Shown in pieces: positions 1,713-61,481 of a stretch of 64,000 bases of DNA. The translations under genes were made by a program, and so were the position numbers. The notes under the pieces are model-generated. The model did not search any database. It was given only the letters and a program-made list of their open reading frames with translations, and had not been told where the DNA came from. The stretch comes from Candidatus Sysuiplasma acidicola (GTDB lineage Archaea; Thermoplasmatota; Thermoplasmata; Sysuiplasmatales; Sysuiplasmataceae): assembly GCA_019721035.1 (NCBI GenBank), contig JAHEAA010000002.1:76020-140019 (forward strand), in the 5' to 3' direction. Every line of letters starts with the position of its first letter. Positions within the stretch are counted from its first letter, which is position 1.

Positions 1713-2483
1713 ATGTGCGCCGCAGCGGTGGGCGCGAAGAATGCCCGCAGGACATGCGCTGTTGTGACGGGCGGCTCGCGCGGCATAGGCAGGGCAATTG
1801 CGCTTGAGCTTGCGGTAAAGGGCGTGAATGTATGCGTGTGCTTCAAGTCAGATGAAGCTGCCGCAGGCGACTCAGTCGCGCAGGCAGTGAAGACAGGTGT
1901 GGACGCATTTTATTTCAGAGCAGACGTGTCGAAAGAGACGGAAGTCCGCTCCCTGTTCTCGGCTGTGGAAGACAGATGGGGCGGTGCCGAGATACTTGTC
2001 AACAACGCAGGCATATATGAGCGATCTTCGTTCACTCAGATGGGATTTGCGGACTGGAAAAGAACAATCGAAAACGATCTCGACAGCATATACCTCTGCT
2101 GCAGCGCCGCTGTTCCGTACATGAAAAAGAACGGATTCGGAAGAATCATAAACATTTCGTCGCAGCTTGCACTGAAAGGCTCGAGGCATGGAGCGCACTA
2201 TGCAGCGGCAAAAGCCGGCATCCTCGGATTCACACGTTCTCTCGCAATCGAACTCGGCGGTGCGGGCATAACAGTAAATGCCGTTCTGCCCGGCTCGGTG
2301 AAAACGAGAATTCTCGGCAGATACAGCGAAGAGCAGCTTGAGGAAATGGCGCGCTCGATTCCGGCTGGAAGGATAGGGACGGCTGAGGATGTTGCGCACA
2401 CCGTCGCTTTTCTCGCTTCAAGGGAGGCGGACTACATCAACGGCGCATCAATCAACGTCTCCGGCGGACTCCTGATGTACTGA
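1713..2483 (+). CDS. SDR family NAD(P)-dependent oxidoreductase (FabG-like)
   Basis: TGGSRGIG Rossmann motif, NNAG, YAAAKAG (YxxxK), about 250 aa. Confidence 0.8.
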   Translation: MCAAAVGAKNARRTCAVVTGGSRGIGRAIALELAVKGVNVCVCFKSDEAAAGDSVAQAVKTGVDAFYFRADVSKETEVRSLFSAVEDRWGGAEILVNNAGIYERSSFTQMGFADWKRTIENDLDSIYLCCSAAVPYMKKNGFGRIINISSQLALKGSRHGAHYAAAKAGILGFTRSLAIELGGAGITVNAVLPGSVKTRILGRYSEEQLEEMARSIPAGRIGTAEDVAHTVAFLASREADYINGASINVSGGLLMY

Positions 2484-5517: not shown

Positions 5518-5906
5518 TAAATCACACTCCGTTCAGGCAGTGTACGGTGGGAATGCGAACCGCCACATAGGGAACTGTTCTCCCGGAGACCAGCCTGCAC
5601 AAGGAATCGGAAGAACATTTCTGTATTTCCAGCCACCATATTCTGTCTTTTTTTTTCTCCGTCTTGTTCTACGTCATGTATCCTATTTAATAGTTTTGAA
5701 CTTATTAAGATACTTAAAGTTTACAAATATTACAAATATCCTCACTTCAAAACATATAAAGATACTAACAGACGGCAAAACATGAATGCATGCATCTGCC
5801 ATGACATCTCCCGCGATTGAGGCTGCTGACGTGCTGGGGGCGTCTAGCGTCGATGCGTGACAGGATGAACAAAATCTGCATTTCTGTGGATTCCGATCGC
5901 CTTTCA

Positions 5907-15257: not shown

Positions 15258-16875
15258 GGTAACTGGTCAGTCTTATGAAAAGAGCCTAATGAAAGTGTTG
15301 TTTTCATTGAATTGACCGAAAGTTTTTTCGGGTAGGATCGCCATACACCCCTCTGATGAACCGGATTCTGAACGAAGAATTTGCAGGCAGGATTGAATTC
15401 CTTCTCTCCGCCGATGAGAAGAAGTTGAGACTCTCGCAGGATGCGAGACAGGAACTTCTCAGGAAGTTCCGTGAAATGATCGAGATGATCAGGAAGCTGG
15501 AGAAGGAGAATCAGAGACTCAAGGAGGATCTGAAGAAGGTACGTGACGATTACGAAGAGTACAGGCACCGCCATCCAGAGACAGTCGGCGTGAAGAACGG
15601 CAAGGCATACGCCATACCTGAGAACGCAAAGGATGAAGGCGAAGGCGGGAACGGGACCGGCAGGAAGCCGGGCGCTCAGCCCGGCCACAAACCGTTCTTC
15701 AGGGAAAAGCCGGCACCGGACTGGACGGAGGAACTGCCTGTCGATGTGTGTCCCGACTGCGGAAGCGGCGAACTCGGCGCGCCTTCACTGCGTGCAAGGA
15801 CAGTGGAGGGCATCACACTGCCGGTGCACTTTGCAGTGGAGTATCTCATTCAGCGCAGATGGTGCGGCACATGCCGCACTTTTGTCGAGTCCGATGTGCC
15901 CGATGTACTGCCAGGGTCCAGGATTGACCTGAGGACGATGCTCGTCATGACATACATGCGCATCGCACTCAGGCTTCCGGTGCAGTCCGTCGCAGAGGCG
16001 ATGCAGCGACTCTTCTCATTCCATGTCTCAGAAGGCGAAATCATAGGCGTGGAGAGGAAACTCGCTGACGCGTTCACAGACTACTACGAACAGCTGCTCG
16101 GGGACATACGCAATGCGCCTGTCCGCCACATGGACGAAACCACATGGCGTGTCGACGGCGAGAACAGCTGGTTATGGGCATTCGTCACAAAGTGGACCGT
16201 TGTCTATGCAATAAGGAAGAGCAGGAGTCATGAGGTGCCGCTCAACATACTCGCAGAACATGTTGCCGGCATCAACATCACTGACCGTTACAGGGCATAC
16301 GACACGCTCGCCGCAAAGACGGGCGACCTGCAGTCATACTGCTGGTCGCATGTTCTCGGCGATGCGAAGGAACTGGCGGAGTTCTACGGCGAGGAGGGAA
16401 AGCGCATACACGACACGCTCCATTCCATACATGAAGATGCAGCGAAACTGAAACACATGGGAAATGAATATGATGTCGAGGCATTCGTATCGAGACTGAA
16501 AACACTCGACGTGCCGTACAAATCGGCACAGTGTGCCAGGTTCGTGAAGAACCTCATAGCAGACAGGGAAAAGCTGTTCCTGTTCGTCGAACTGGACATA
16601 GAGAGCACGAACAACCGTGCCGAGAGGGCAATAAGACCGGTTGTCATCTCGAGGAAGATATCTGGAGGCAGCCGCTCAGACAGCGGCGCCACCATGTTCG
16701 AGAAACTCGCGAGTATCGTACAGACGATGAAGCTCAGGGATCTCAATTTCCTCACAGACGGCATGAGAATACTGCGGACATCACACGGGTGAATGCCGCA
16801 ACATACATTCTGACGGCGGGCGGCCGAATAATATTCGGAAACTCATGTCACTGTACACAAGACTGAATAGTTACC
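15258..16875 (+). mobile_element. IS66-family insertion sequence (single-ORF, ISBst12-like group), about 1.6 kb
   Basis: An imperfect 20-bp terminal inverted repeat: GGTAACTGGTCAGTCTTATG at 15258..15277 versus the reverse complement of 16856..16875 (GGTAACTATTCAGTCTTGTG), 17 of 20 matching. It begins GTAA like IS66 TIRs and encloses the transposase ORF. No clean 8-bp TSD was found. Confidence 0.6.
15356..16792 (+). CDS. IS66-family transposase (TnpC-like)
   Basis: N-terminal leucine zipper/coiled coil, CPDCG...CGTC zinc finger, DDE region (HMDETTW, WLWAF, QSYCWSHVLGD), C-terminal TNNRAERAIRPVVISRKISGGSRS signature of IS66 TnpC. Confidence 0.9.
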   Translation: MNRILNEEFAGRIEFLLSADEKKLRLSQDARQELLRKFREMIEMIRKLEKENQRLKEDLKKVRDDYEEYRHRHPETVGVKNGKAYAIPENAKDEGEGGNGTGRKPGAQPGHKPFFREKPAPDWTEELPVDVCPDCGSGELGAPSLRARTVEGITLPVHFAVEYLIQRRWCGTCRTFVESDVPDVLPGSRIDLRTMLVMTYMRIALRLPVQSVAEAMQRLFSFHVSEGEIIGVERKLADAFTDYYEQLLGDIRNAPVRHMDETTWRVDGENSWLWAFVTKWTVVYAIRKSRSHEVPLNILAEHVAGINITDRYRAYDTLAAKTGDLQSYCWSHVLGDAKELAEFYGEEGKRIHDTLHSIHEDAAKLKHMGNEYDVEAFVSRLKTLDVPYKSAQCARFVKNLIADREKLFLFVELDIESTNNRAERAIRPVVISRKISGGSRSDSGATMFEKLASIVQTMKLRDLNFLTDGMRILRTSHG

Positions 16876-17888: not shown

Positions 17889-18746
17889 TCAGGATATTCT
17901 GGCGAGCAGAGCAAGGCGCTCGCCTTCGGTCATTCCCGCCGCCGGATAAAAGAATGCGAAATTGGACTTTACCATCGCCGCTGCGTCCGCGATCCTGTCC
18001 ACACTCAACGCAATGCCTGAGCATCGCGCCTGGGCTGCGATCGAAAGCAGTTGTTCCAAACCATTTACAGAGACAATGCTTATTTTTGCATTCCATTTCC
18101 TGATAGGCTCGATGTCATCATCCGTATTTCTGCCTATGACAACGCTGCATCCTCTCCTCATCATCATCCAGGGAATAATGATGTCATCACGCTTTTCCAC
18201 CAGACAGGCGACACTGCCCTGCGTACCCATCGGCAGGCCACCGGGTCCCTGTTCGGAATTCCCGTAGATGTACGCCGCCTTCTCTCTTGCCTCGACGAAC
18301 ACTTCCACGTCCGGATGATCGAGCGAAACACGCAGTTCCATGTCCTCATGGTCTCCGATGATGCGCGATCCTGCTTCTCTGGCGAGTTCCATGCTCGTGT
18401 ACTTCTGTCCGCCTGATCTGCGCGCTCTAACCGCGAATGCACAGCCTCTGTAAAGCAATCCTGACGCATAAGCCGAGACAGCGCTGACCAGTTCATTCAT
18501 ACCCACTGGAGCCTCCACCACTTCACTGAAGGAGGCTATGCCAAAGGTGCGCGAGATGATCTCTCTGCTCCTCTCGGCATTGCCGGATAGAACGTATATT
18601 CTGCCTCTGTCTGAAGAGACGATACATTCCTGCCCGGAGCCTAGGAATGCGTTCTCTATGTTTTCGATGAGTGTGTTGATGAATCTTCTTCGAACCCTTT
18701 CGCTCTTGAGACCTATCTCGGCATATCTGAGCAGGAATAGTGTCAT
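17889..18746 (-). CDS. ThiI-like protein: N-terminal ferredoxin-like/THUMP tRNA-binding domain plus a truncated, degenerate PP-loop domain
   Basis: The YAEIGLKSERVRRRF start is the typical ThiI N-terminus and a THUMP domain follows. GLPMGTQGSVACLVEKRDDIIIPWMMMRRG aligns to the ThiI G-x-x-G-K-vlvLlSGGiDSPVAaylmmkRG region, but SGGIDS is replaced by EKRDDI. The protein ends about 115 aa after this. Confidence 0.75.
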   Translation of the reverse strand: MTLFLLRYAEIGLKSERVRRRFINTLIENIENAFLGSGQECIVSSDRGRIYVLSGNAERSREIISRTFGIASFSEVVEAPVGMNELVSAVSAYASGLLYRGCAFAVRARRSGGQKYTSMELAREAGSRIIGDHEDMELRVSLDHPDVEVFVEAREKAAYIYGNSEQGPGGLPMGTQGSVACLVEKRDDIIIPWMMMRRGCSVVIGRNTDDDIEPIRKWNAKISIVSVNGLEQLLSIAAQARCSGIALSVDRIADAAAMVKSNFAFFYPAAGMTEGERLALLARIS

Positions 18747-24047: not shown

Positions 24048-25232
24048 GTGACAAAAAACCATCCATGGATAGCTGAAGAACTGAAGGGAATCAGGGATGC
24101 CGGACGATACGTACCCATCAGAGCGCTGCAGTCACCGCAGGGAGCATGGGTCACCATCGGCAGGAGAAAATTACTGAATCTCTGCTCAAACAACTATCTT
24201 GGCTATGCCAACCATCCTGAGGTGAAACGCGCCGCGATAGATGCAATCGAAGCGTATGGTGTCGGTGCAGGTGCTGTGAGGAGCATTGCCGGGACGTCGG
24301 AACTTCATGTAATGCTTGAAGAGGAGATTGCGTCGTTTAAACACATGGAGGCAGCACTCGTGTTTCAGGGTGGCCTGCTAGCTAACGCCGGCACCATTCC
24401 TGTTCTGGTCGGCAAGGATGATGTAGTGTTCAGCGAGGAGCTGAACCATGCGAGCATCATCGACGGCGTAAGATTGAGTTCTGCGAAGCGTATTGTTTAC
24501 AGGCATGTGGATGTGGAGGATTTGGGAAGACAGCTGAACCAGCACAGATCAGATGGAAAGAGATCCCTCATCATAACAGACGGTGTGTTCAGCATGGACG
24601 GGGACATTGCGCCGCTCGACAGGATCGCTCAGCAGGGCATGGACTCTGACTCAATGATATATGTTGATGACGCTCACGGGGAAGGTGTTCTGGGAGACCA
24701 CGGTCGTGGCATAGTCGATCATTTCAGCCTTACAGATCGTGTCGATGTGGAAATGGGCACATTTTCAAAGGCAATTGGAAGCATGGGAGGCTTCGTAGCC
24801 GGTTCATCCGAATTGATAGAACTTCTGAGACAGAGATCTCGCCCATTCCTCTTCAGCAGCGCGCTGAATCCCGGGGATGCAGCCGCAGTTCTCAAATCGA
24901 TTCAGCTCATGAAATCAGATGATTCGCCGCTCAGACGCCTTTGGGCTAATTCGGGATCTCTGAAGTCCGGGTTGAGGGCTGCAGGGTATGACACAGGCAA
25001 TAGCAAGACTCCAATCACTCCGGTCATGATAGGGGATGAAAAGAAAACTGTGGAGCTTAGCAGGGTTCTGTATGAGGAGGAATCACTTTTCGCCTCCCCA
25101 ATTGTGTATCCGACAGTCGCGCCCGGGGCTGCAAGAATCAGACTGATGCCGTCTTCTGTTCACAGCGACGATGACATCAGATTTGCGATTGATGCGTTCC
25201 GCGCAGCAGGCTCAAAGCTTGGACTTGTCTGA
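24048..25232 (+). CDS. kbl: 2-amino-3-ketobutyrate CoA ligase (glycine C-acetyltransferase), alpha-oxoamine synthase family
   Basis: PLP-dependent AONS-family motifs (NNYLGYANHPEV, DDAHGEGVLGDHGRG, GTFSKAIGSMGGF) plus tdh adjacency. Confidence 0.85.
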   Translation: MTKNHPWIAEELKGIRDAGRYVPIRALQSPQGAWVTIGRRKLLNLCSNNYLGYANHPEVKRAAIDAIEAYGVGAGAVRSIAGTSELHVMLEEEIASFKHMEAALVFQGGLLANAGTIPVLVGKDDVVFSEELNHASIIDGVRLSSAKRIVYRHVDVEDLGRQLNQHRSDGKRSLIITDGVFSMDGDIAPLDRIAQQGMDSDSMIYVDDAHGEGVLGDHGRGIVDHFSLTDRVDVEMGTFSKAIGSMGGFVAGSSELIELLRQRSRPFLFSSALNPGDAAAVLKSIQLMKSDDSPLRRLWANSGSLKSGLRAAGYDTGNSKTPITPVMIGDEKKTVELSRVLYEEESLFASPIVYPTVAPGAARIRLMPSSVHSDDDIRFAIDAFRAAGSKLGLV

Positions 25233-25352
25233 ACTCTCGCGCATGAGCATTCCAAGGATGCAATACATTGTTGGCATAAGGTGCAACGTGCCTGCTGGAA
25301 TACCGATGTGTCTACGCAAAGATTATTACCGTTCAGGAGAATGCGAGTCCTG

Positions 25353-25650
25353 CCAGGAGAAGAAGGGCGGCCGACGGTAGCCATCTCAGGATGGCAGCTG
25401 AGGAAAGTCCCCTCTCCAGAGAAAGGTGGCCTGTTTAAACGCAGGGGGGCGAGAGCCCCGGCAAGGGCGCAGAAACGACACAGCCAGGATGCAGAATGAT
25501 TCGCCCGGCGATGACGTTGTCCTGGATTTGATGAAACGGCGACACCCCATCGGAGCAAGTCCAAATGGCCGGCATTTCTCAAATCCGGCAGGTAGGACGC
25601 ATTAGTCGAATGCTGCCTGAAACAGAAAGGGGCTTACTACCTTCACCTGG
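25353..25650 (+). ncRNA. rnpB: Candidate RNase P RNA
   Basis: Universal P4 5' motif GAGGAAAGUCC at 25400..25410 and the P4 3' motif ACAGAAAGGGGCUUA at 25622..25636. The two strands are complementary, including the conserved U-G wobble (AAGUCCC / GGGGCUU). P2 is GGUAG (25376..25380) / CUACC (25637..25641). P3 is a hairpin CCAUC-UCAG-GAUGG immediately 5' of the P4 motif. There is candidate P1 pairing between 25353..25361 and 25642..25650. The exact ends are uncertain. Confidence 0.55.
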
Positions 25651-35993: not shown

Positions 35994-36239
35994 ATCCTTG
36001 CCGGTCAAAGTTAGATTTAACCCAATTAAAAACGTTTGCCGTGAAAGAAGGCTCACCATTCAACTGTCAATGGGCCTGTTGCAGGGGCCCGTTGCAGGAA
36101 ACATTTGAATTTGACAACAGGCGTTAACACGAGCTCGTGGCATCGAGTCATACGGATTTATCGCTTTATTCGCCGGGAACAGATGGAGAAAGCCGCTCTT
36201 CAAGGAGCAAACGATCCGGATCAGCTGCAGGCATATCAT

Positions 36240-36578
36240 TCAGAGATGCTGAGATGTAGGCAGCATGCTCTGGTGGTTCAGCGCTCTACGTCTCGGAACG
36301 CGATATCTCAGCACTTCATCCAGTGGATAGTCTATATAATTGCACAATATTGCGAGACGGTCCATTGTGAATGGCTGCGCCCCGTTCATCAATTGCCTTA
36401 CACTCCATCCAGGATGAACTCTGGATCTGTATCCCAATACCCTTCCTAACTGGTTGACGCTTCCCGCCTTCCTGATGCCTTCGGCAAGAAGAGATTCCCG
36501 GAAATCCGCCGCCAGCCAAATTTTCTCATTTCGCACCCCATCAGAAGTGATGTACGAGTCTGCTATTCCTTCTGTCAT
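36240..36578 (-). CDS. Possible small HTH-containing protein (112 aa). Weak call.
   Basis: AGSVNQLGRVLGY resembles an HTH turn. It sits in a roughly 760-bp gap between trxB and the MDR gene. The overlapping + strand ORF 36105..36449 has non-protein-like composition. Confidence 0.3.
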   Translation of the reverse strand: MTEGIADSYITSDGVRNEKIWLAADFRESLLAEGIRKAGSVNQLGRVLGYRSRVHPGWSVRQLMNGAQPFTMDRLAILCNYIDYPLDEVLRYRVPRRRALNHQSMLPTSQHL

Positions 36579-42350: not shown

Positions 42351-42832
42351 CACTATTTGTATATAGTCATATCGTCATCTGAATAGTAATCTGATTACAT
42401 AATTGAATACAATCGTGATTTTATATTAGAATACAGACATGAATATTAATAAGATAATAGACAACAGTTCTTGGATTCCATATCAGGTTCAAAAAGCCTA
42501 TTATATGCCAAAAGTATTCCCATAAAACTCACCCATGGCGGGGATGCACCACCAGTTAATGGGGAAACAGTAGTCGCAAAGTGTGCTATAATTTAACTGG
42601 CATCGGAATCTAACGCGATCGTGCAACTGCACTCTCGCATCACAAATCGGGAAAGTCTTCAGAAAATGCTTAAGTCAAGCAGGTGTGTGTTTATTATATG
42701 AGTGTCAGAAATGCCGTGAAAGTGGACAGGGAAGAAGTTCCGCAAGTGGTACCCGGCAGCGGGAGCCAGAAAAGGGCGGGAAAGAACATAACCCCGAAGA
42801 AGAGCCATGCTGGAGACCAGGCGGGATCACAC

Positions 42833-45814
42833 ATGAAATTTGAAAGGAAATTTGTAGCGGACGGAGAAGATCCGTATTCCACAGTCAGGTGGGTGGAAAG
42901 AGTTTCTCGTATTACCGAACCTGATGGTAAAATTGTCTTTGAAATGGACAACATTATGGCTCCAGAGGGTTGGAGCCAGCTGGCAGTGGACATTGCAGTT
43001 TCCAAATATTTCCGAAAGGCAGGCGTTCCAGGCACCGGAACAGAAACTAGTGTGATGCAGCTCATTCACAGAGTGGCTCACACCATCAGGTGGGCCGGTG
43101 AGCAATATGATTATTTTGAGGGAGTCGATGCGGAAAATTTTGAAGCTGAACTCACGTACATGCTGCTACATCAGATGGCTGCCTTTAACTCACCTGTCTG
43201 GTTCAATGTCGGCCTCTATCACGAGTATGGCATAAAGGGAAGCGGTGGCAGCTGGGCATGGGATGCGACAAAAGGCAAGGTAACGCAGACGGAAGACGCT
43301 TATTCGAGACCACAGTGCTCCGCATGCTTCATACAGTCCGTTACTGACGATCTGATGTCGATATTCGACCTGCTGAAGAATGAAGCAAGGCTGTTCAAAT
43401 ACGGTTCCGGGACTGGCACCAACTTCTCCAAGATCAGGGCCGCCGAGGAGAAGCTGTCCGGCGGCGGCACGTCCTCCGGCCTCATGTCTTTTCTGAAAGT
43501 TCTTGATGCCGGCGCAGGTGCCACTAAGTCAGGCGGAACAACAAGAAGGGCCGCAAAGATGGTCGTACTCGATATAGATCATCCCGAAATCGCGTCGTTC
43601 ATCAACTGGAAGGTGAAGGAAGAGGAGAAGGTCAGGGCGCTGATCAGAGAAGGATATCCTGCCGATTTCAACAGCGAAGCGTACCTCACCGTGTCTGGCC
43701 AGAATTCCAATAATTCTGTGAGAGTCACAGATGATTTCATGAATGCTTTCCTTTCTGACGGCAGCTGGAATACCACCTACAGGACCACTGGAGAGATAGC
43801 ACACACATACAAGGCAGCAGAACTCATGGAACAGGTGAGCAAGGCAGCCTGGGCTTCCGCCGATCCAGGCATGCAGTTTGACACGACAATAAACAGATGG
43901 CACACGTGCCCCAATTCCGGCAGAATCAACGCGTCCAATCCCTGTTCGGAATATATGTTCCTCGACAATACTGCGTGCAATCTCGCATCCATAAATCTGG
44001 TCAAATTCATCGACGAGGAAGGCAATTTTGACATTGACGGTTTCAGGCAGACGATACGGGTATTCACTACCGCAATGGAGATCATCGTGGATTTTGCATC
44101 ATATCCGACCGAAGTAATCGCCGCCAACAGTCACACGTTCAGAACGCTCGGACTGGGTTTTGCGAATCTTGGAACGTCTGTAATGCTGCTTGGATATGCC
44201 TACGACAGCGACGAGGCAAGGACTTTCGCCGCCGCGATATCTGCCATCATCACCGGCCATTGCTATAGAACGTCGGCCGAGATAGCAGCAATAACAGGTC
44301 CATTCCCGGGCTTCGAGGTAAACAAAGAGGCAATGCTCAGAGTCATGGGCATGCACCGTGATGCCATATTCCGCATAGATTCGACTAAACTTCCACCGCT
44401 GCTGCTCAAAGCGGCAATGGATGACTGGAACGAATGCATCAAGCTCGGAGAGATGTATGGCTACAGGAACGCACAGGCTTCAAACGTGGCTCCGACAGGG
44501 ACGATTGGTCTCCTCATGGATTGTGATACAACAGGCATAGAGCCGGATTTTTCCATCGTCAAATGGAAAAAGCTGGCGGGCGGTGGTTATTTCAAAATTG
44601 TCAATAAATCCGTCGAGATTGCGCTCAGGAGACTTGGATACGGTACAGAGAAACGCAGAAGCATAATAACCGCTCTTACCGGCACTGGCACACTGGACGG
44701 TTCGCCGTTCATCAACAGGGATTCCCTGGCTGCAAAGGGAATGAGTGCTGAAGAGATCAGAGAAGCGCTGGAATACATAAGCCGGACGCACACAATGGAT
44801 GATTTCACACCGCATATGTCGGAAAAGGAGCTCATCGCCATGGGCTTCAGCAGGGAACAGGTACAGGCCACACGCGACTTCGTAAACGGAGTTCAGTCCA
44901 TGGAACTGATCGAAGATGTCCTGCCTGAGCATGTCCGGATATTCGACTGTGCAAACAGGAGCGGACGCGGTAAACGCTTTATCGCACCAATGGGGCACGT
45001 GAAGATGATGGCTGCCGTGCAGCCGTTCATATCCGGCGCCATTTCCAAGACTGTCAACCTCCCCGCAGATGTCACTTGGGAAGATGTACGCGATGTGTAC
45101 GTTAATTCATGGCGGATGGGTCTCAAGGCACTGGCCGTCTATCGAGACGGATCCAAGGCATCACAACCGCTCAGCTCCGCCAAGGAAATTGGAGAGGAGG
45201 TGCTGGAACTTGGCCGGGGGGTCAAGAAAGAGCTGCCGAAAAAACGTGGAGGCTTCACGCTCGAGTCCACGATCGGCGGGCACAAGCTTTTCCTGCGTAC
45301 TGGAGAGTACAGCGACGGAACGCCGGGCGAAATATTCATAGATATGTACAAGGAGGGGTCGTCATACAGGAGCATACTGAATGGTTTCGCCATTGCCGTC
45401 TCTATTGGACTGCAGTACGGCGTGCCGCTGGAGAAATACGTAAATGCGTTCACATTTACGCGCTTCGAGCCGCAGGGATTCACCGATCATCCGAATGTGC
45501 GTACATGCACTTCTCCCCTCGACTTCATCTTCCGCGTGCTTGGTATGGAGTATCTGGGCAGGACGGACTTTGTACAGGTGAAACCTTCTGTCGATGAGAA
45601 AGAGACGGCCAGGGAACCGAGGCCTTCTTTCATACATCCTTCGACAAAGTCTCTGGACGAGTTCAGCAGAGAAGAGCCTGCGCCCGATTTAATGGACAGG
45701 AGTTTGATGTTCGATTCCGACGCGCCGCTCTGTTCGGTTTGCGGGCACGTGACAGTTAGGAACGGCAGCTGTTACAAATGCCTGAACTGTGGCAGCACTA
45801 CCGGTTGTTCGTAA
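42833..45814 (+). CDS. nrdJ: Ribonucleoside-triphosphate/diphosphate reductase, class II (adenosylcobalamin-dependent), with C-terminal zinc ribbon
   Basis: Active-site NPCSEYMF...CNLASIN, radical-site Cys region SACFIQSV, C-terminal CSVCGHV...CYKCLNCGSTTGCS. The start was taken at MKFERKFVADGEDPY; the supplied ORF has 50 extra codons. Confidence 0.9.
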   Translation: MKFERKFVADGEDPYSTVRWVERVSRITEPDGKIVFEMDNIMAPEGWSQLAVDIAVSKYFRKAGVPGTGTETSVMQLIHRVAHTIRWAGEQYDYFEGVDAENFEAELTYMLLHQMAAFNSPVWFNVGLYHEYGIKGSGGSWAWDATKGKVTQTEDAYSRPQCSACFIQSVTDDLMSIFDLLKNEARLFKYGSGTGTNFSKIRAAEEKLSGGGTSSGLMSFLKVLDAGAGATKSGGTTRRAAKMVVLDIDHPEIASFINWKVKEEEKVRALIREGYPADFNSEAYLTVSGQNSNNSVRVTDDFMNAFLSDGSWNTTYRTTGEIAHTYKAAELMEQVSKAAWASADPGMQFDTTINRWHTCPNSGRINASNPCSEYMFLDNTACNLASINLVKFIDEEGNFDIDGFRQTIRVFTTAMEIIVDFASYPTEVIAANSHTFRTLGLGFANLGTSVMLLGYAYDSDEARTFAAAISAIITGHCYRTSAEIAAITGPFPGFEVNKEAMLRVMGMHRDAIFRIDSTKLPPLLLKAAMDDWNECIKLGEMYGYRNAQASNVAPTGTIGLLMDCDTTGIEPDFSIVKWKKLAGGGYFKIVNKSVEIALRRLGYGTEKRRSIITALTGTGTLDGSPFINRDSLAAKGMSAEEIREALEYISRTHTMDDFTPHMSEKELIAMGFSREQVQATRDFVNGVQSMELIEDVLPEHVRIFDCANRSGRGKRFIAPMGHVKMMAAVQPFISGAISKTVNLPADVTWEDVRDVYVNSWRMGLKALAVYRDGSKASQPLSSAKEIGEEVLELGRGVKKELPKKRGGFTLESTIGGHKLFLRTGEYSDGTPGEIFIDMYKEGSSYRSILNGFAIAVSIGLQYGVPLEKYVNAFTFTRFEPQGFTDHPNVRTCTSPLDFIFRVLGMEYLGRTDFVQVKPSVDEKETAREPRPSFIHPSTKSLDEFSREEPAPDLMDRSLMFDSDAPLCSVCGHVTVRNGSCYKCLNCGSTTGCS

Positions 45815-47739: not shown

Positions 47740-48609
47740 GTGGGTACCAGGGGAAGCGAGCTTGCAATGGCACAGACCGAACTTGCGCTCTCCGTTCTGA
47801 GTCATTCAGGCATCGAAGAAAAGATGGACGTGCAAATCATACGGACGAGCGGTGACAGCGGAACATCGAAACCCGCGGAAGGTTCATTTGTGGACACAAT
47901 CAATGATCGTGTCATAGACGGGCGGCTCGATATAGGCGTTCACAGCATGAAGGACCTTCCTGCCATTCTCCCGCCGGAAATCGAGATAGCAATGGTACCA
48001 AAAAGGGCAAGCCGGCATGACTGTCTAGTTGGCCCGGCTACGCTGTACCGATTACCCTCGGGAACGACAGTGGGAACCTCCAGCCCGAGGAGGATAGCAC
48101 AGCTTGCGCGCATCCGGCCCGATCTTAGAGTGGTCCAGATGAGAGGAAACGTCACGACACGTATCGCACGGCTGTCAACGGGCAAAGCCGGTTCTGCGTT
48201 GCTGGCGCTTGCCGGACTCGAACGGCTGGGCATCCACCCTTCTGATGGAATGGGTATTTATCCCCTGCCCCTGGATCATTTTGTTCCTGCAGCCGGCCAG
48301 GGCGCAATTGCGCTGGTCTGCAGGAAAGGCTATTTTACTGAAGCGGTTAAAAAGGCGGCTTCGGACAGACAGACGCTGGGGGAAACAGGCATAGAGAGGG
48401 CGCTGCTTCTCGGACTCGGCGCAGGATGCAGCGTCCCGCTGGGCATCAGCGTGGTATCGTTCGGCCGCGGGTACACAGTTCGTCTGCAGCTTTTATCGCC
48501 TGACGGTTCCAAGGAAGCGAAACTGACCGCACGCGTGTCCGCTGATGACGGCGTCAATGGCATTCTGTCGTCGTTTGAACGATTGCGTGCATCGAGGTTT
48601 GGACAATGA
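47740..48609 (+). CDS. hemC: Hydroxymethylbilane synthase (porphobilinogen deaminase)
   Basis: GTRGSELAMAQT N-terminus, dipyrromethane cofactor Cys region. It begins with GTG 13 nt after the hemB stop. Confidence 0.9.
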   Translation: MGTRGSELAMAQTELALSVLSHSGIEEKMDVQIIRTSGDSGTSKPAEGSFVDTINDRVIDGRLDIGVHSMKDLPAILPPEIEIAMVPKRASRHDCLVGPATLYRLPSGTTVGTSSPRRIAQLARIRPDLRVVQMRGNVTTRIARLSTGKAGSALLALAGLERLGIHPSDGMGIYPLPLDHFVPAAGQGAIALVCRKGYFTEAVKKAASDRQTLGETGIERALLLGLGAGCSVPLGISVVSFGRGYTVRLQLLSPDGSKEAKLTARVSADDGVNGILSSFERLRASRFGQ

Positions 48610-49382
48610 CGTCAGGGAGAAAACATGAGGAGAAGGGTATCGTCTACCTTACCGGAGCCGGGCCCGGCGATCCATCGTTGCTCACCGTTAGGGCCAGGGA
48701 GCTGATTGCATCATCACGCCATATCGTCTACGATGCGCTCGTCGGAAGTGCCATAATGGAGCTTTTCCCGGCGGAAGCGAAAGTTTACAATGCCGGGAAG
48801 CGGAGCGGAAGGCACACAATGTCGCAGGATCAGATAAATAATCTGTTGGTTGAACTCGCCGATTCCGGTGCTGATGTGCTGAGGCTCAAGGGAGGCGATC
48901 CGTTCATCTTCGGCAGGGGAGCCGAGGAGGCGGAATTTTTGCTTGCCCAGGGAGTCAGGGTGGAAGTTGTGCCAGGAGTGAGTTCTGCGACGGCCGGTCC
49001 AGAACTGGCGGGTATACCGCTGACCAGGAGGGGTGTTTCCGACAGAGTGCTGATCATATCTGCTCGCGGACCGGGCGGTATGGACATCAACTGGAACGGC
49101 ATATGTGAGGAGAGACAGACAACGGTGTTCATGATGGGTCTTTCCATGGCTCCTGAAATATCCGCCCATCTCATCGAAAGAGGCGCTCCGCGTAACACGC
49201 CGGTGGCGCTGATATTCGGGGCGTCTCTTCCGGAGCAGAGGACGGTCATAACAGATCTTGAACGACTCGGGCGTGAGGGACATGCTGACAGCGGCAGCGG
49301 GCCGGCGCTGATAGTGGTAGGACCGACGGTGTCCGGCAGGATTAAACGAGGTGATGAAAAAGATGAAAGTAGGAGTGCTTAG
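48606..49382 (+). CDS. cobA: Uroporphyrinogen-III C-methyltransferase (SUMT)
   Basis: VYLTGAGPGDPSLLT SAM-binding motif; about 258 aa. It has a 4-bp overlap with hemC. Confidence 0.85.
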   Translation: MTSGRKHEEKGIVYLTGAGPGDPSLLTVRARELIASSRHIVYDALVGSAIMELFPAEAKVYNAGKRSGRHTMSQDQINNLLVELADSGADVLRLKGGDPFIFGRGAEEAEFLLAQGVRVEVVPGVSSATAGPELAGIPLTRRGVSDRVLIISARGPGGMDINWNGICEERQTTVFMMGLSMAPEISAHLIERGAPRNTPVALIFGASLPEQRTVITDLERLGREGHADSGSGPALIVVGPTVSGRIKRGDEKDESRSA

Positions 49383-50112
49383 ACCGGCTGATGAATGGGA
49401 GGAAAGTGCGGCAATACTCAGAAACGCGGGCCTTGAACCGGTAGCGGCTCCGGCTCTTGAAATCAGAAAATTGACTCCACATAAAGCTCTGCTGGAACGA
49501 TTGAGCGGGGCCGACATTGTCATCTTCGCGAGCGCCAGGGCCGTGAGAACATTCTTTTCAGAAGGTGAGAATAAAACAGGCTTTCCGTCAGTGGCCAGAG
49601 TTATCTCTATCGGCGAAAGAACACACGCCGAACTCGCCCGGCACGGAGTTGATTCGCTCAAGCCCGCTGCTTATTCTTCGGCGGGCATAGTCGAACTGGT
49701 GCGGACGATGCGCACTGAAGGAGTGTCTGTCGTCGTGATGCGCAGCCGCGAGGGCAGCTCAACGCTTATGGAGGGACTTCGAAGCATGGGTTTTGACGTT
49801 ACAGAGATTCCGCTGTACAGTGTGGCATACCCGCGTAACGACGATGCACTCAGGACGCTGGTAAGAGACATAGCCAGGGGCGGCATATATGCACTGCCGT
49901 TCACCAGCGCCATGATGGTACGAAATTTTTTCAGATGTGCCGAAATGAACTGCATCATGCCGCAGTTCTTGCAGAAGCTTGCAGACTGCAGTCTCTGGTC
50001 CATAGGGCCCGAAACCTCCGCAGTGCTGCGCGAAGCTGGTGCGGTATTCACAGAAGCGGCCGTTGCCGACTACGCCTCCATTGCGGCAACAATCGCGTCG
50101 GTAGACAGATGA
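49351..50112 (+). CDS. hemD: Uroporphyrinogen-III synthase
   Basis: Size and two-lobed HemD-like layout. It is last in the hemB-hemC-cobA operon, with a 32-bp overlap with cobA. This family is weakly conserved. Confidence 0.6.
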   Translation: MMKKMKVGVLRPADEWEESAAILRNAGLEPVAAPALEIRKLTPHKALLERLSGADIVIFASARAVRTFFSEGENKTGFPSVARVISIGERTHAELARHGVDSLKPAAYSSAGIVELVRTMRTEGVSVVVMRSREGSSTLMEGLRSMGFDVTEIPLYSVAYPRNDDALRTLVRDIARGGIYALPFTSAMMVRNFFRCAEMNCIMPQFLQKLADCSLWSIGPETSAVLREAGAVFTEAAVADYASIAATIASVDR

Positions 50113-55699: not shown

Positions 55700-55999
55700 A
55701 TGGACAACAATCCTCGACCGGCTGGCACCGACAACACGGAACACGGTGTCGGAAAGATTGATTTAGTCAGAACATCTTCGAAGCCCCGGAAAGTGTTTGA
55801 ATTGGCGGAACGCGTAGCTCCTCACCGGCACTGCAGACAGTGTGGCAAGCCTGTGGCACTTGAAGCCACGTTCTGCTCTGACGAATGCAACAACAGTTTC
55901 AAAAACGGACTCAGAAGAAAGAAGAGACAACTCTACCTCTATTACATCATGGTTATTGCACTGCTGTTCCTGGCGCTGGCCTACGTTGGTAAGTTATGA
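55700..55999 (+). CDS. Small zinc-ribbon protein with C-terminal TM helix
   Basis: CRQCGKPV...FCSDEC (C-x2-C-x13-C-x3-C) followed by the hydrophobic LYLYYIMVIALLFLALAYV. The true start may be internal. Confidence 0.45.
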   Translation: MDNNPRPAGTDNTEHGVGKIDLVRTSSKPRKVFELAERVAPHRHCRQCGKPVALEATFCSDECNNSFKNGLRRKKRQLYLYYIMVIALLFLALAYVGKL

Positions 56000-56982
56000 C
56001 GCGAAGAGAAGTGTGCCTCGGCGGCACGTTCAATGCATTGCATGCTGGACACAGGCTGCTGCTTCAGTCGGCGTTTCATAATGCAGATGCGGTGTACATC
56101 GGCCTTACATCAGATGAAATGGCACAATCGAAACGGACTGCAGTCAGATCCTTCGCCCTCAGGCGGAGGTCGCTGGTCTCATTTTGCACCGGGTTCCAGA
56201 AGCCGTTTTTCATAACCATGCTGCATGACCCGTATGGCCCGGCGGTAAGCATGGCATCTCTGAGTGCAATAGCCGTGACTCCGGACACTGTTTTTCGCGT
56301 TCCTGTGATCAACAGGATGAGGTGCACCAGGGGCATGAAGCCTCTGGAACGCATCATTGTGCCCCTGGTCCGATGTGCTGATGGAATTAAGCTCAGCTCC
56401 TCCAGGATTGTCGCGGGAGAATGCGACAGAGATGGAAATGTGCTCCGGCGCATTACAATAGGCATCGGTTCGGCTAATCCGTCGAAAATCAAGGGAGTGG
56501 AAATGGCTTTCCATCGGTATGCGCATGTTTTCCGTAATCCGATGTTCAAAGAACAGGATGTGAAGTCGTCGGTTTCCGATCAGCCGTCGGGTGATGATAC
56601 TGTCAGAGGTGCCATGAATCGCGCGCGCCTGGCTTTGATTGGAAACGACATCGGTATCGGCATCGAAGCAGGTTTGTTCAGAAACAGGGTACTCCACAGA
56701 ACCTTCGATGTCCAGTATTGTGTCATAGTGGACAGGGCAGGGTACGTTTCGTCGGGCCACGGAATGGGTTTTTCCTATCCGCCGTCGGTGCTCAAGGATA
56801 TTTCCGAGGGAAAGACCGCTGGGCACTCGATGTCATCGATCAGCGGCATTAAAGACATAGGAAGGAAGGAGGGAGCCGTAGGTTATCTTACCAGGGGTGC
56901 GATTGGTCGGGCAGAATTGACAGAACAGGCTGTTATCGCTGCACTGATTCCGCGCATCAACAGAACGCTGTACACCGCGTAA
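55996..56982 (+). CDS. coaD: Fusion protein: archaeal phosphopantetheine adenylyltransferase (PPAT, CoaD) N-domain plus DUF84/YjjX-type inosine/xanthosine triphosphatase C-domain
   Basis: N-domain: GGTFNALHAGH, IGLTSDEMA, LHDPYGPA and KPLERIIV match archaeal PPAT block for block. C-domain: IKDIGRKEGAVGYLTRGAIGRAELTEQAVIAAL matches E. coli YjjX [33 protein letters not shown]. Confidence 0.8.
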   Translation: MTRREVCLGGTFNALHAGHRLLLQSAFHNADAVYIGLTSDEMAQSKRTAVRSFALRRRSLVSFCTGFQKPFFITMLHDPYGPAVSMASLSAIAVTPDTVFRVPVINRMRCTRGMKPLERIIVPLVRCADGIKLSSSRIVAGECDRDGNVLRRITIGIGSANPSKIKGVEMAFHRYAHVFRNPMFKEQDVKSSVSDQPSGDDTVRGAMNRARLALIGNDIGIGIEAGLFRNRVLHRTFDVQYCVIVDRAGYVSSGHGMGFSYPPSVLKDISEGKTAGHSMSSISGIKDIGRKEGAVGYLTRGAIGRAELTEQAVIAALIPRINRTLYTA

Positions 56983-56993
56983 CTTACAAGGGG

Positions 56994-57094
56994 GCGCTGA
57001 GGGGGAGATTTGAACTCCCGAGTCGCAGAGCGACACCGGCTTTCCTGAGAGATTCTCAAGGCCGGCGCCTTGAACCGGGCTTAGCTACCTCAGC
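56994..57094 (-). tRNA. tRNA-Ser (anticodon UGA) containing a 13-nt intron at the canonical 37/38 position
   Basis: Reverse strand: acceptor GCTGAGG/CCTCAGC, discriminator G, D stem GCT/GGC, anticodon stem CCGGC/GCCGG, loop CUUGAG|intron|A with a bulge-helix-bulge-like TGAGA/TCTCA helix. Long variable arm GTCGC-TCT-GCGAC. T arm GGGAG-TTCAAAT-CTCCC. The 5' end overlaps the pheT stop codon. Confidence 0.7.
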
Positions 57095-59688: not shown

Positions 59689-60708
59689 TTACACTATCAG
59701 CGAAAGGTCACCAAACTCATGCCAGCTGTAACCTATCTCCTTTGCGACTGAGTAGGCTGACAGGAGTGTTGAATCGTCGACAAGGGCGGAAACCATATCC
59801 ACATGGGAACCGTCCGGTTCATGCAGACCGGTTATGAGGCCGTCTATCATGCCGAATCTGAAACCCGGCGTGATGTAGATGTCGGTCCTTCCATGAATGG
59901 GCTTTCTGCCTGAGATTGCACATGATTCCAGCGCTCTCGCAACAGTGGTACCCACTGCCAGAACGCGACCGCCCTCTTCGTGCGTTTTCTGAATTTGTTC
60001 AAGCGTCCTCCTGCTAACTGCGTATTCCTCATCGAGCAGCCTGGTCGCGTTTTCGAATTCTGATGACTCAAGAGAAGAAAGATTGCAATGCAGAGTAATT
60101 GTGGCAAAACGCACCCCATTCTTCTCCAGCGACTGCATCACCCTTTGGGTAAATGGCCGCGACGCAGAAGGAAATTCGACGGAGCCAGGCAGCGACGAGA
60201 AAACAGTATCGTATGTTTCCGGAGGTAGATCGAAAGGTATGTGACCGTATCTTATATACTGCCCGAATTTGCTCATCACAGACGTGAATTCGAAGTAATC
60301 CGCAGGCTCAACCCACCAGTACCTGTGGAAGAGACTGTGCCTTTTCACCAGTTTCACTCCCGTAGATTCAGGCACTGTCAGTGCTATTTCTCTTTCCGAC
60401 AGTAATTCACCTATGTTCCGCGGACGCGGCTCGCACAGCATCATCCCGTGCACTGAACTCGTGCCGAAATTCAGTTTGCCTCTTCGGCCGCTCTCCGTGA
60501 AGAATACGTTGAGTGAAGACGGAATCATGAGTGAATCATTGAACACCAGAAGATCACCCGGACGAAGAAAGTCCCGCAGGCCGATGAAAGGTGATCCGCT
60601 GACCATCCCTCTGCTCCTGTCTATCGTGAGCAGTTTGACCTCGTCTTTCGCTGCGCCGTAGAATTCCGGCGGAAGGTGTGCGGTGTTGTAATCGAACATG
60701 TGTTTCAT
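59689..60708 (-). CDS. queA: S-adenosylmethionine:tRNA ribosyltransferase-isomerase (QueA) homolog
   Basis: Collinear blocks versus E. coli QueA: PGDLLVFNDSLMIPSSL / PGDLLVFNNTRVIPARL; ATITLHCNLSSLE / AFVTLHVGAGTFQP; RVLAVGTTVARALES / RVIAVGTTSVRSLES; IYITPGFRFGMIDGLITGLHEPDGSHVDMVSA / [32 protein letters not shown]. Confidence 0.8.
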   Translation of the reverse strand: MKHMFDYNTAHLPPEFYGAAKDEVKLLTIDRSRGMVSGSPFIGLRDFLRPGDLLVFNDSLMIPSSLNVFFTESGRRGKLNFGTSSVHGMMLCEPRPRNIGELLSEREIALTVPESTGVKLVKRHSLFHRYWWVEPADYFEFTSVMSKFGQYIRYGHIPFDLPPETYDTVFSSLPGSVEFPSASRPFTQRVMQSLEKNGVRFATITLHCNLSSLESSEFENATRLLDEEYAVSRRTLEQIQKTHEEGGRVLAVGTTVARALESCAISGRKPIHGRTDIYITPGFRFGMIDGLITGLHEPDGSHVDMVSALVDDSTLLSAYSVAKEIGYSWHEFGDLSLIV

Positions 60709-60718
60709 AGTCTCAGCC

Positions 60719-61375
60719 TCACCTCGCCGTGAGTTGCTCACAAATCAGTTTATAGACATCTGTAGCGGCTGTATCGGGGTGCTTTAGCTGACTGACGTCC
60801 GCATCCGGGATCGCAAGCCGATGCATTTCAGTGTCCATGTCACCTGGATCTATGTTCATCGCACGCACTCCCGCTTTGGCGAGCTCGACATCAAGCACAT
60901 TGATTGCCTGGTTGAAGGCTGCCTTCGAAGCGCCATATCCTGACCATCCCGCATATGGAGTGCGCGATGCGTCGGATGTAATGTGAACGATTATGCCTTT
61001 CGCATTCATCAACGGCAGGAGCTTCTGAACAACATTGAAATTTGCGAACACATTGGACTCAAACAACCTTCTCAGTTCCATAAGATTAATCTGATCGAAT
61101 GCAGGAAGTGGAAGTTGTCCTATGGTGCCGGCATTCAGCACCAGAGCGTCGATGTAGCCAGGCTTCGCCCTGATCACGCTCCTGAGATTCAGCACGTGAT
61201 TTTCCAGCCTGATATCACATGGAACAGTACTAGCATCCGCATTTTTGTCTTCTTTCAGGGATTCCAGCAGTTGTATCCTGCGCCCGCACCCTGTAACCGA
61301 CCAGCCCTCTGCCGAGAATTTGTTGAACAAGCTTCTGCCGAGTCCGGAAGTGCAGCCGGTAACAACTGCAGACAT
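60719..61375 (-). CDS. SDR family oxidoreductase
   Basis: MSAVVTGCTSGLGRSL (TGxxxGxG), LVLNAG, YGASKAA (YxxxK). It sits 10 bp upstream of queA on the same strand. Confidence 0.75.
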   Translation of the reverse strand: MSAVVTGCTSGLGRSLFNKFSAEGWSVTGCGRRIQLLESLKEDKNADASTVPCDIRLENHVLNLRSVIRAKPGYIDALVLNAGTIGQLPLPAFDQINLMELRRLFESNVFANFNVVQKLLPLMNAKGIIVHITSDASRTPYAGWSGYGASKAAFNQAINVLDVELAKAGVRAMNIDPGDMDTEMHRLAIPDADVSQLKHPDTAATDVYKLICEQLTAR

Positions 61376-61481
61376 CTTCTCTCTGTGTTCGTTCATTGCA
61401 GACATGTAATGAGGATGGTAATTGATATTCATAAGCTTTACAGTTTAATAATTTTATAAACATGGCAGCAACCTGCGCGGC

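Follow-up and report, generated by a model that had tools for sequence, protein, structure and literature searches.

The window, by which we mean the whole 64 kb stretch of DNA that we analyzed, derives from an uncultured Thermoplasmata archaeon, and its marker genes confirm that the DNA is truly archaeal. It contains an archaeal RNase P RNA and codes for an archaeal-type PheRS β subunit, TFB, Cdc6/Orc1, ribosomal protein L15e, an archaeal ThrRS editing domain, fibrillarin and deoxyhypusine synthase. On the minus strand, a QueA-like gene follows directly upon an SDR gene:

59689..60708, minus strand: QueA-like gene; ATG at 60708 is the likely start (339 amino acids, a length as in called homologs)
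60709..60718, minus strand: spacer between the SDR stop codon and the QueA-like start (10 nt, by direct sequence reading)
60719..61405, minus strand: partner SDR gene; ATG at 61405 is the likely start (228 amino acids, matching homologs)
61406..61481, minus strand: intergenic region 5' of the SDR gene, with the TATA-box-like sequence TTTATAAAA at about 61453-61461
25355-25648: archaeal RNase P RNA

The mechanically called ORFs extend further upstream in both cases (59689..60741, minus strand, opening with GTG at 60741, for the QueA-like gene, and 60719..61432, minus strand, for the SDR gene). A full-length QueA-family ORF had been reported from the sequence 10 bp downstream of an SDR on the same strand, and direct reading finds this placement to be exact: 10 nt separate the SDR stop codon TGA (60721-60719) from the QueA-like ATG. 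A Shine-Dalgarno-like motif (GGTGAGG) is located just 5' of this ATG and overlaps the 3' end of the SDR gene. The TATA-like element lies ∼50 nt 5' of the SDR start codon, and we infer from the archaeal TATA consensus that it serves as a promoter. Because this element is found in the intergenic region 5' of the SDR gene, the two genes probably form a separate bicistronic unit after a glycerate-kinase-like gene. In the window lineage, the gene pair adjoins pheT and an intron-containing tRNA gene.

The QueA-like protein and its family

The window protein is a member of the Queuosine_synth superfamily. It matches PF02547 with 218.6 bits (E = 1.5e-64, cut-off 25) over profile positions 19-322 of 322 and aligns end to end with the QueA structures 1VKY and 1YY3. 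The AF2 model (pLDDT 94.5) has the two-domain fold of QueA, and a Foldseek search of the PDB returned only 1VKY, 1YY3 and 1WDI, with a probability of 1.0. In the structure-based (Foldseek) alignment, the protein corresponds to QueA over its full length at 23–26% sequence identity, and retains the small inserted β-barrel domain and the N-terminal motifs with Arg-21, Asp-52 and Asn-57.

The database name of the protein is S-adenosylmethionine:tRNA ribosyltransferase-isomerase. We compared it with the three QueA equivalog models of NCBIfam (NF001140, TIGR00113 and NF002398) and found that it fails all of them (167.8 versus a cut-off of 324 bits, 148 versus 267.45 and 95.9 versus 588). Ten relatives from archaea and bacteria likewise score below the QueA equivalog cut-offs. 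The best 120 homologs have common motifs, which differ from those of 1VKY, 1YY3 and 1WDI. At the sites of the canonical motifs PLPPYI, GSvAAPTAGLHF, LHVGxGTFxPV, TNFHLPxS and FxSFGDAM, the window protein carries IRYGHI, GSVEFPSASRPF, LHCNLSSLES, TGLHEPDGSH and WHEFGDLS. We define the paralog signature as PGS.E.PSA...F, TG.H[ED]...SH and [WY]HEFGD; in the window protein, it is represented by PGSVEFPSASRPF, LHCNLSS, TGLHEPDGSH and WHEFGD.

Comparison of 121 paralogs with 13 canonical QueA sequences revealed eight canonically fixed positions that are switched in the paralogs (Pro to Tyr-154, Ala to Glu-178, Thr to Ser-181, Thr to Ser-212, Asn to Gly-294, Leu to His-302, Phe to Trp-329 and Ser to Glu-331). 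The paralogs have gained the acid/base residues Glu-178, His-302, His-330 and Glu-331. Paralogs and canonical QueA have 32 conserved positions in common, and the shared positions include Arg-21, Asp-52, Asn-57, His-207, Glu-227, Arg-248, Thr-254, Arg-258, Glu-261, His-296 and Asp-334. Across 119 diverse family members, 18 positions are invariant and about 37 nearly so; His-207, Glu-227, His-296 and Asp-334 are constrained in the family and common to active QueA.

In a neighbor-joining tree (calculated without support values), the 121 paralogs are monophyletic and separate from the 13 canonical QueA sequences. The tree contains a deep archaeal sub-clade of 44 sequences with the LHCN signature and one with IHCN (P0007), and the bacterial members of the paralog clade come from Rhizobium plasmids, Nonomuraea, cyanobacteria and soil metagenomes. 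By these sequence comparisons, the window protein belongs to a sister family distinct from canonical QueA: the two families are alike in their two-domain fold, full-length alignment and shared conserved positions, but the paralog fails the equivalog thresholds, has the eight switched positions and forms a clade of its own. The label of a bacterial-type QueA, given to the protein in the sequence-only reading, is thus at odds with scores at about half of the equivalog cut-offs, the switched positions and the separate clade. That reading had named phylogeny beforehand as its refuting test; a deep QueA-like clade does exist, but it is not a clade of known function, and we therefore reframe the original idea rather than dismiss it. 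The depth and diversity of the archaeal clade argue against a recent horizontal transfer of a bacterial queA gene. The paralog family is not described in the literature we searched (on QueA-like proteins, PF02547 and COG0809, SoxR and the Rhizobium contexts).

The partner SDR and its pairing with QueA-like genes

The SDR matches PF00106 with 133.7 bits and contains the sequence motifs VVTGCTSGLG (TGxxxGxG), LVLNAG (NAG), ITSDAS (catalytic Ser) and YGASK (Tyr-x3-Lys), which together identify it as a classical SDR. An Arg pair follows strand β2, and the enzyme is probably NADP(H)-dependent. None of the NCBIfam models matches the partner SDR at cut-off, and the relatives of solved structure that match it best are ketoreductases and a sulfoacetaldehyde reductase. 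A kinship with sepiapterin reductase, considered on the basis of motif resemblance, was rejected, as that enzyme is absent from the best solved relatives; a role as epoxyqueuosine reductase was dropped as well, there being no queuosine context.

A profile built from 30 bacterial partner SDRs scores the window SDR at 198 bits, compared with 90 bits for the other SDR of the window (1713-2483). The partner proteins have the subfamily motifs SDA..xY.GW..YG.SKAA and DPGDM.T.MH..A.P, and their sequences define one subfamily of their own, which spans both domains of life. They thus share their motifs and usual length with classical NADP(H)-dependent SDR carbonyl reductases, but differ from these by the subfamily motifs and by being found specifically next to QueA-like genes.

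Among 48 independent paralog loci from metagenomes and genomes that are long enough to hold an upstream gene, 46 have an SDR gene directly upstream and in the same orientation, compared with 0 of 25 canonical QueA loci (Fisher p = 1.5e-17); the exceptions are L068 and L069. We examined eight different archaeal contexts and found the SDR in each of them (8/8), and the archaeal neighborhoods of the pair have nothing else in common. In relatives, the SDR and QueA-like genes are 1–25 nt apart or overlap by 4–8 nt. The pair is also found on Rhizobium plasmids and in Nonomuraea. We identified a natural fusion protein (P0203), in which SDR residues 3–193 are joined to a QueA-like part (residues 263–588) with both signatures kept, and a similar but more degenerate fusion (P0250). 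The fusion proteins and the 4-nt overlaps point to stoichiometric co-function of the two proteins. The locus counts and the natural fusion thus strongly confirm the suggestion that the SDR works together with the QueA-like protein. The window pair has the signature, the clade membership and the upstream partner-subfamily SDR by which we define the QueA-like/SDR module.

Queuosine genes and redox regulators in the gene neighborhoods

We found tgt downstream of and adjoining canonical queA in 10 of 25 loci, but next to the paralog in 0 of 66. The same 66 paralog loci have no linkage to arcS or to queC-F. In the scanned ORFs of the 64 kb window, which lie outside 5450-5785, 25160-25582, 36105-36449, 42683-45814 and 47740-49661, we detected no tgt, arcS or queC-H. 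Rfam scans of 22 paralog loci and of the whole window revealed neither a preQ1 nor a SAM nor any other riboswitch. The paralog thus differs from QueA in never being found beside tgt, in being almost always beside an SDR and in being sometimes fused to one. Rhizobium-type bacteria, which have the pair, already have a canonical queA and make no archaeosine. These data do not support the tRNA pathway envisaged initially, whether queuosine-like or based on a new 7-deazaguanine, in which the SDR would act as reductase: the protein is not a QueA ortholog, pathway genes are missing from the scanned ORFs of the window, tgt is found at none of the 66 loci, and the pair occurs in Rhizobium as well.

The premise of this pathway, that archaea lack QueA, has to be qualified, since bacterial-type queuosine gene sets have been reported in DPANN archaea and Methanosarcinales, where QueA is co-localized with QueH-like and Tgt genes and the set was interpreted as a queuosine pathway gained by transfer (Castelle et al. 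2021, PMC8204110). Theirs is a different situation. Both cases concern a PF02547-family gene in an archaeal genome, but here neither tgt nor queH is found in the scanned 64 kb ORFs, the gene's constant neighbor is an SDR, and the protein falls into the paralog clade.

In bacterial relatives, a divergent soxR gene adjoins the pair on Rhizobium plasmids whose other flanks differ, and lies beside the pair in five metagenome loci. Altogether, a soxR gene and/or a SoxR box was located in Rhizobium (L092, L094 and L098) and in the metagenome loci L032, L037, L046, L047, L056, L059 and L071. The box in the intergenic region between soxR and the SDR gene matches 15 of 18 positions of the SoxR box consensus CCTCAAGTTAACTTGAGG (taken from PMC4411124). 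This SoxR-like box follows a −35-like hexamer (TTGACT in L092, TTAACT in L094), and in L037 and L059 a similar box lies immediately next to the start of the SDR gene. From these arrangements, the pair is predicted to be under SoxR control in several bacterial lineages. A GAF-HisKA_3 kinase and a LuxR-type regulator are found in 13 loci and in Nonomuraea, and the other recurrent neighboring regulators may be redox or stress sensors. The SoxR linkage is confined to a minority of bacterial lineages, and neither soxR nor a SoxR box was found in the window or in archaeal relatives. To our knowledge, archaea have no SoxR.

In non-enteric bacteria, SoxR regulons are small, and their oxidoreductases, monooxygenases and transporters deal with redox-active metabolites (PMC4146615, PMC4411124). 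The pairs from Rhizobium and soil resemble these regulons, as they have a divergent soxR and a box at the promoter position typical of direct activation targets, and an oxidoreductase (the SDR) is among the members of both. A QueA-like gene is not listed for the SoxR regulons in the literature we searched, and the window copy differs from them in having a TATA-like promoter only.

A proposed function for the SDR/QueA-like pair

QueA transfers the ribose of SAM and rearranges it to form a cyclopentane ring, and this reaction is regarded as having no parallel in biology. We know of no other reaction than this ribosyl transfer and isomerization in which SAM donates its ribose. The sequence-only reading had offered, as an alternative to a tRNA pathway, that QueA was recruited for a different SAM-ribosyl transfer, and this is the reading that our sequence data favor. 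We estimate a probability of about 0.6 that the pair is a two-enzyme module, in which QueA-like SAM chemistry on a non-tRNA acceptor would be combined with an NADPH-type redox step. The two genes would represent a self-contained, co-transcribed unit, apparently inherited together in Thermoplasmata archaea and many bacteria. Because the QueA fold and the 32 conserved residues are kept, the QueA-like protein is predicted to bind S-adenosylmethionine and to run QueA-type chemistry, in which C5' is deprotonated, adenine and methionine leave, and the five-carbon ribosyl unit is transferred or rearranged. The eight switched specificity positions and the gained acid/base residues suggest that the acceptor differs from tRNA-bound preQ1 and is most likely a small molecule. 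The SDR, probably NADPH-dependent, would catalyze a coupled carbonyl/alcohol redox step. It may act on the acceptor, ahead of the ribosyl transfer, or on the product derived from SAM, once the transfer has taken place. Our best guess for the role in bacteria is that the pair processes or neutralizes redox-active compounds, or makes a protective one, rather than modifying tRNA.

A more specific version of this function can be put forward tentatively, at clearly less than even odds. The module may embody a second use of SAM ribose transfer, in which SAM and a small molecule or water would yield a carbocyclic, cyclopentane-type product or conjugate. In bacteria, it would be induced by SoxR or another redox sensor and would neutralize redox-cyclers or provide a protectant, and in Thermoplasmata it would have served a housekeeping function for a long time. 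For the archaeon, the physiological role is an extrapolation, because the SoxR linkage is found in a minority of bacteria and is inapplicable to archaea.

The retained QueA architecture, including the β-barrel domain and the N-terminal Arg-21, Asp-52 and Asn-57 motifs, makes an RNA substrate conceivable. The pair could then transfer the SAM ribosyl group to another nucleoside of tRNA or rRNA that bears an amine (perhaps, in archaea, to a 7-deazaguanine such as archaeosine or preQ1 elsewhere), with the SDR tailoring the ring; the proximity of pheT and of a tRNA gene with an intron, and the housekeeping, constitutive-looking archaeal neighbors, would be in line with this. We consider such an activity unlikely, however, since canonical queA is readily linked to tgt whereas none of the 66 paralog loci is linked to tgt, arcS or queC-F, and since the SDR is all that the archaeal neighborhoods have in common. 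Furthermore, the orthologous pair is present in archaeosine-free bacteria and on accessory plasmids, beside SoxR and its box, which is the pattern of a small-molecule stress gene, and SDRs are not known to us as partners of tRNA base-modifying enzymes. The plasmid-borne copies also bear on the much less probable case of a divergent but functional QueA that makes epoxyqueuosine on preQ1-tRNA, in an archaeon with a partly acquired bacterial queuosine pathway. Significant full-length similarity to QueA and the database name of the protein are consistent with this, as is the presence of bacterial queuosine genes in some archaea (PMC8204110). Yet the Rhizobium paralog is an extra copy next to soxR and a SoxR box, the scores reach about half of the equivalog cut-offs, the canonical invariant motifs (PTAGLHF, VGxGTFxPV, TNFHLP and FSFGDAM) are replaced, the protein is part of a separate monophyletic clade, and tgt and queH are not co-located, unlike in the DPANN cases. 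We regard this explanation as highly improbable.

Replacement of several canonical motif residues, together with a catalytic activity that is predicted only, would also fit a conserved operon without shared chemistry, or a QueA-like protein that has lost its SAM chemistry and acts as a scaffold or binding subunit of the SDR. This, too, appears improbable: the 119 sequences keep 18 positions invariant and about 37 nearly so, which speaks for an active site under constraint, the residues that were gained are of polar acid/base type rather than hydrophobic fillers, and the fusions and overlapping genes again favor stoichiometric co-function.

If the SAM chemistry is kept, as the favored two-enzyme module predicts, this large and conserved sister family would represent a second biological use of the QueA reaction. 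Its members occur in two domains of life, are nearly always coupled to a reductase of their own and in some bacteria appear to be linked to a sensor of redox stress. What looked like queuosine in Thermoplasmata thereby gives way to a candidate metabolic function. The paralog is currently mis-annotated as a tRNA enzyme in thousands of genomes. Cultured carriers are available in Rhizobium etli CFN42 (plasmid p42f) and Nonomuraea gerenzanensis, in which the module can be tested directly.

A QueA-like gene and its SDR neighbor in an archaeal contig

The gene pair under study lies on the reverse strand and comprises two ORFs:

59689..60741, minus strand: QueA-family ORF, 350 aa
60719..61432, minus strand: SDR ORF, 237 aa

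The first matches Pfam Queuosine_synth (PF02547, 218.6 bits, profile positions 19-322 of 322) and the second adh_short (133.7 bits). When the DNA is read directly, the SDR gene ends in ...ACG GCG AGG TGA (stop at 60721-60719), and 10 bases separate this stop from the QueA-like start ATG AAA CAC ATG at 60708. Gene calls with the same starts on a 99%-identical contig yield proteins of 339 aa (QueA-like) and 228 aa (SDR). The sequence-only reading of a QueA homolog and an SDR in this position, orientation and 10-bp spacing is exact by ORF list, Pfam and DNA reading. A TTTATAAAA element is located 5' of the SDR start (61405); the predicted promoter of the pair is TATA-like, and this archaeal pair is without SoxR.

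The host is an archaeon, because the window holds an archaeal RNase P RNA (25355-25648, plus strand, 192 bits, Rfam) and encodes an archaeal PheRS-beta, TFB, Cdc6/Orc1, L15e and an archaeal ThrRS editing domain, and because the gene calls on the matching contig include fibrillarin and deoxyhypusine synthase. Close relatives carry the names Candidatus Sysuiplasma, Thermoplasma sp. and Thermoplasmatota. The mechanical ORF 25160-25582 (minus strand) is spurious, since it overlaps the RNase P RNA.

A sister family with the QueA fold

The window protein scores 167.8, 148 and 95.9 bits against the NCBI curated QueA equivalog models (cut-offs 324, 267 and 588, respectively), and 10 archaeal and bacterial relatives likewise fall below the cut-offs. 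When the top 120 hits from the database were aligned with the three QueA proteins of solved structure, all 120 proved to have a common signature unlike that of canonical QueA.

Signature motifs of the paralog family and of canonical QueA
Motif 1: paralog PGS.E.PSA(G/S)R.F; canonical GSvAAPTAGLHF
Motif 2: paralog LH(C/T)(N/G).xS; canonical LHVGxGTFxPV
Motif 3: paralog TG.H(E/D)...SH; canonical TNFHLPxS.L
Motif 4: paralog (W/Y)HEFGD; canonical F.SFGDAM

Eighteen positions are invariant among 119 family members. Comparison of 121 paralogs with 13 canonical QueA sequences revealed 32 positions conserved in both sets, including Arg-21, Asp-52, Asn-57, His-207, Glu-227, Arg-248, Thr-254, Arg-258, Glu-261, His-296 and Asp-334, and eight that are fixed but switched (Y154/P, E178/A, S181/T, S212/T, G294/N, H302/L, W329/F and E331/S; window residue/canonical residue). 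All 121 paralogs form one clade separate from canonical QueA in a neighbor-joining tree without support values. Its archaeal members (44 with an LHCN signature and one with IHCN) form one deep sub-clade, with a mean distance of 1.07 compared with 0.76 among bacterial paralogs. A deep archaeal clade, as considered in the sequence-only reading, is recovered, inside a paralog clade that holds bacteria too. A confident AlphaFold2 model (pLDDT 94.5) has the three QueA entries as its only solved structural relatives; the fold is the same as in canonical QueA, but the family is different.

An older survey placed QueA homologs in bacteria only (PMC1282579), and known archaeal QueA cases are transferred QueA/QueH/Tgt sets (PMC8204110). 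We found no description of the paralog family in the papers searched on QueA paralogs or homologs, PF02547/COG0809, SoxR or Rhizobium links. New are the partner and the context, with a substrate that is probably not the canonical one; familiar are the QueA fold and probably the cofactor chemistry. The database name S-adenosylmethionine:tRNA ribosyltransferase-isomerase is probably a functional mis-annotation for the paralog.

Conservation of the SDR partnership

In all eight archaeal contexts read, the gene directly upstream codes for an SDR, at a distance of 1-10 nt or with an overlap. Three of the contexts share synteny with the window (HMG-CoA reductase, glycerate-kinase-like, SDR, QueA-like, proC, pheT); the surroundings of the other five are unrelated to it. 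A 100-nt, presumably intron-containing tRNA (56995-57094, minus strand, 44.4 bits, Rfam; not reported by ARAGORN) lies between pheT and a CoaD/NTPase gene and is kept in related loci (L003 8115-8214, L005 7386-7485). This CoaD/NTPase gene (55996-56982, plus strand) fuses pantetheine-phosphate adenylyltransferase with an ITP-XTP NTPase (DUF84; NF002250 match below cut-off) and is conserved in syntenic relatives. Past the window end, the window's contig has two hemerythrin genes clustered with DUF2249 and cupin genes (L002 2598-5646), a few kb upstream from the HMG-CoA reductase/glycerate kinase/SDR/QueA-like block; the cluster could relate to O2 or redox handling and is not conserved in other lineages.

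A metagenome scan gave 80 further loci, sorted into paralog and canonical by signature and counted together with non-redundant genome loci; an SDR was scored present if it ended 0.9-1.9 kb before the QueA-family gene end. Where the sequence before a paralog-type gene is long enough for the test, 46 loci have the SDR and 2 do not, as against 0/25 canonical-type loci (Fisher p = 1.5e-17). The two exceptions among the 48 (L068 3734-4840, L069 247-1584) have no detectable SDR in the available flanks. Many pairs overlap by 4 nt. Some partner SDRs have an N-terminal SnoaL_2 domain, and in a 4.2-Mb genome with one of the nearest bacterial homologs a SnoaL_2-SDR fusion overlaps the QueA-like gene. Two SDRs and a GNAT gene precede the QueA-like gene, another of the nearest bacterial homologs, on a Gloeocapsa contig (L011 3798-7050); here and in L036, both cyanobacterial-type loci, the GNAT acetyltransferase gene lies between partner SDR and QueA-like gene, with the second SDR before them, which may hint at an amine or acetylation step in this lineage.

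A profile built from 30 bacterial partner SDRs alone scores the window partner at 198 bits and other archaeal partners at 160-199, compared with 90 for an unrelated SDR of the window (1713-2483). Beyond generic SDR motifs, partners share SDA..Y.GW..YG.SKAA and DPGDM.T.MH..A.P. They also have a conserved Arg after beta-2, a feature associated with NADP(H) use in SDRs, which suggests that the partner uses NADP(H). Natural fusions turned up when 1.8 billion representatives were searched with a profile: P0203 (589 aa; SDR 3-193, QueA-like 263-588) has both signatures, and P0250 (606 aa) resembles it but is more degenerate. Given the nearly constant upstream SDR, the shared motifs and the fusions, the two genes act in both domains like a single functional unit that is inherited together, and the SDR, a candidate reductase in the sequence-only reading, is now backed as a functional partner.

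Genomic context and possible function

As a positive control, tgt lies just downstream of canonical queA in 10/25 loci, with secD beyond it; it is absent from all 66 paralog loci. Pfam annotation of most window ORFs (all but those at 5450-5785, 25160-25582, 36105-36449, 42683-45814 and 47740-49661), together with the gene calls on the matching contig, reveals no tgt, arcS, queC, queD, queE, queF, queG or queH. Neither the window nor the 22 paralog loci scanned with Rfam contain a riboswitch, whether for preQ1, SAM or another ligand. The module also occurs in bacteria unconnected with archaeosine, including 32 Rhizobium plasmids (R. etli CFN42 p42f among them), whose hosts presumably also have a chromosomal canonical queA; the one QueA-family place in Nonomuraea gerenzanensis is held by the paralog. 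These results lend no support to the queuosine-like pathway of the sequence-only reading and favor its second alternative, a QueA relative recruited for a different SAM-ribosyl transfer.

Apart from the SDR, recurrent neighbors are regulators only: a GAF-HisKA_3 kinase accompanied by a LuxR-type response regulator (at 13 loci and in Nonomuraea), a winged-helix regulator cluster (six loci, one archaeal), and SoxR with its CIGCGC cluster motif (five metagenome loci). On Rhizobium plasmids soxR is divergent and adjoins the SDR, though other flanking genes differ. The 85-bp intergenic region (L092 7227-7311, L094 4197-4281) holds the SoxR-box-like palindrome CTTCAAGTT(A/C)ACTTGAAC; the L094 box matches 15/18 positions of the E. 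coli SoxR box CCTCAAGTTAACTTGAGG (consensus from PMC4411124), and the L092 box differs in one central base. The box starts directly after a -35-like hexamer (TTGACT in L092, TTAACT in L094), the usual position in SoxR-activated promoters (PMC4411124). In two soil metagenome contigs without adjacent soxR, a comparable box directly adjoins the SDR start (L037 7201-7218, L059 7204-7221). By its sequence, the pair is predicted to be SoxR-wired in some bacteria. SoxR regulons outside the enteric bacteria are small and consist of oxidoreductases, monooxygenases and pumps that handle redox-active metabolites (PMC4146615); in the literature searched, no QueA-like gene is reported as a member.

Catalysis by QueA proceeds through C5' deprotonation, ring opening with adenine loss, nucleophile attack, carbocycle formation and methionine loss. 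The 32 shared residues include most polar core positions, and we would therefore expect SAM binding and this reaction sequence to be retained; the core chemistry is probably that of canonical QueA. The switched residues bring two His and two Glu (Glu-178, His-302, His-330 and Glu-331), replacing the loops that differ most, which suggests a different acceptor. The SDR would perform a carbonyl/alcohol redox step. Its substrate would be either the acceptor, for example a quinone or ketone reduced ahead of conjugation, or the product derived from SAM. Another SAM-cleaving enzyme, a SAM hydroxide adenosyltransferase (DUF62; PF01887, PF20257; 41502-42350, plus strand), adjoins a RidA/L-PSP gene in the window, and its linkage to the pair was not seen in other loci.

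We place the probability of a distinct two-enzyme module that does not serve queuosine synthesis at about 0.8. The label 'bacterial-type QueA' does not fit a protein that misses all three equivalog cut-offs, differs in signature and lies in a separate clade, and a genuine but divergent QueA, despite the common fold, is highly improbable. A non-catalytic role, against which the conservation pattern speaks, is scarcely more credible. Modification of RNA at another amine-bearing nucleoside would agree with the retention of the entire QueA architecture, but we consider it unlikely. A small-molecule, redox-stress function of the module is a tentative proposal, with odds somewhat short of even, and for the archaeon, with its TATA-like promoter and no SoxR, any such role would be an extrapolation by analogy. 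The explanation as a whole we regard as moderately favored.

Two further features were seen in the window. ThiI is seemingly split into two proteins encoded 16 kb apart, one with the PP-loop ThiI domain (963-1709, plus strand) and the other with the ThiI_fer/THUMP domain (17889-18746, minus strand). An IS66-family transposase gene (15356-16792, plus strand) lies beside the Cdc6/Orc1 gene (13548-14708), a mobile element amid a housekeeping region.
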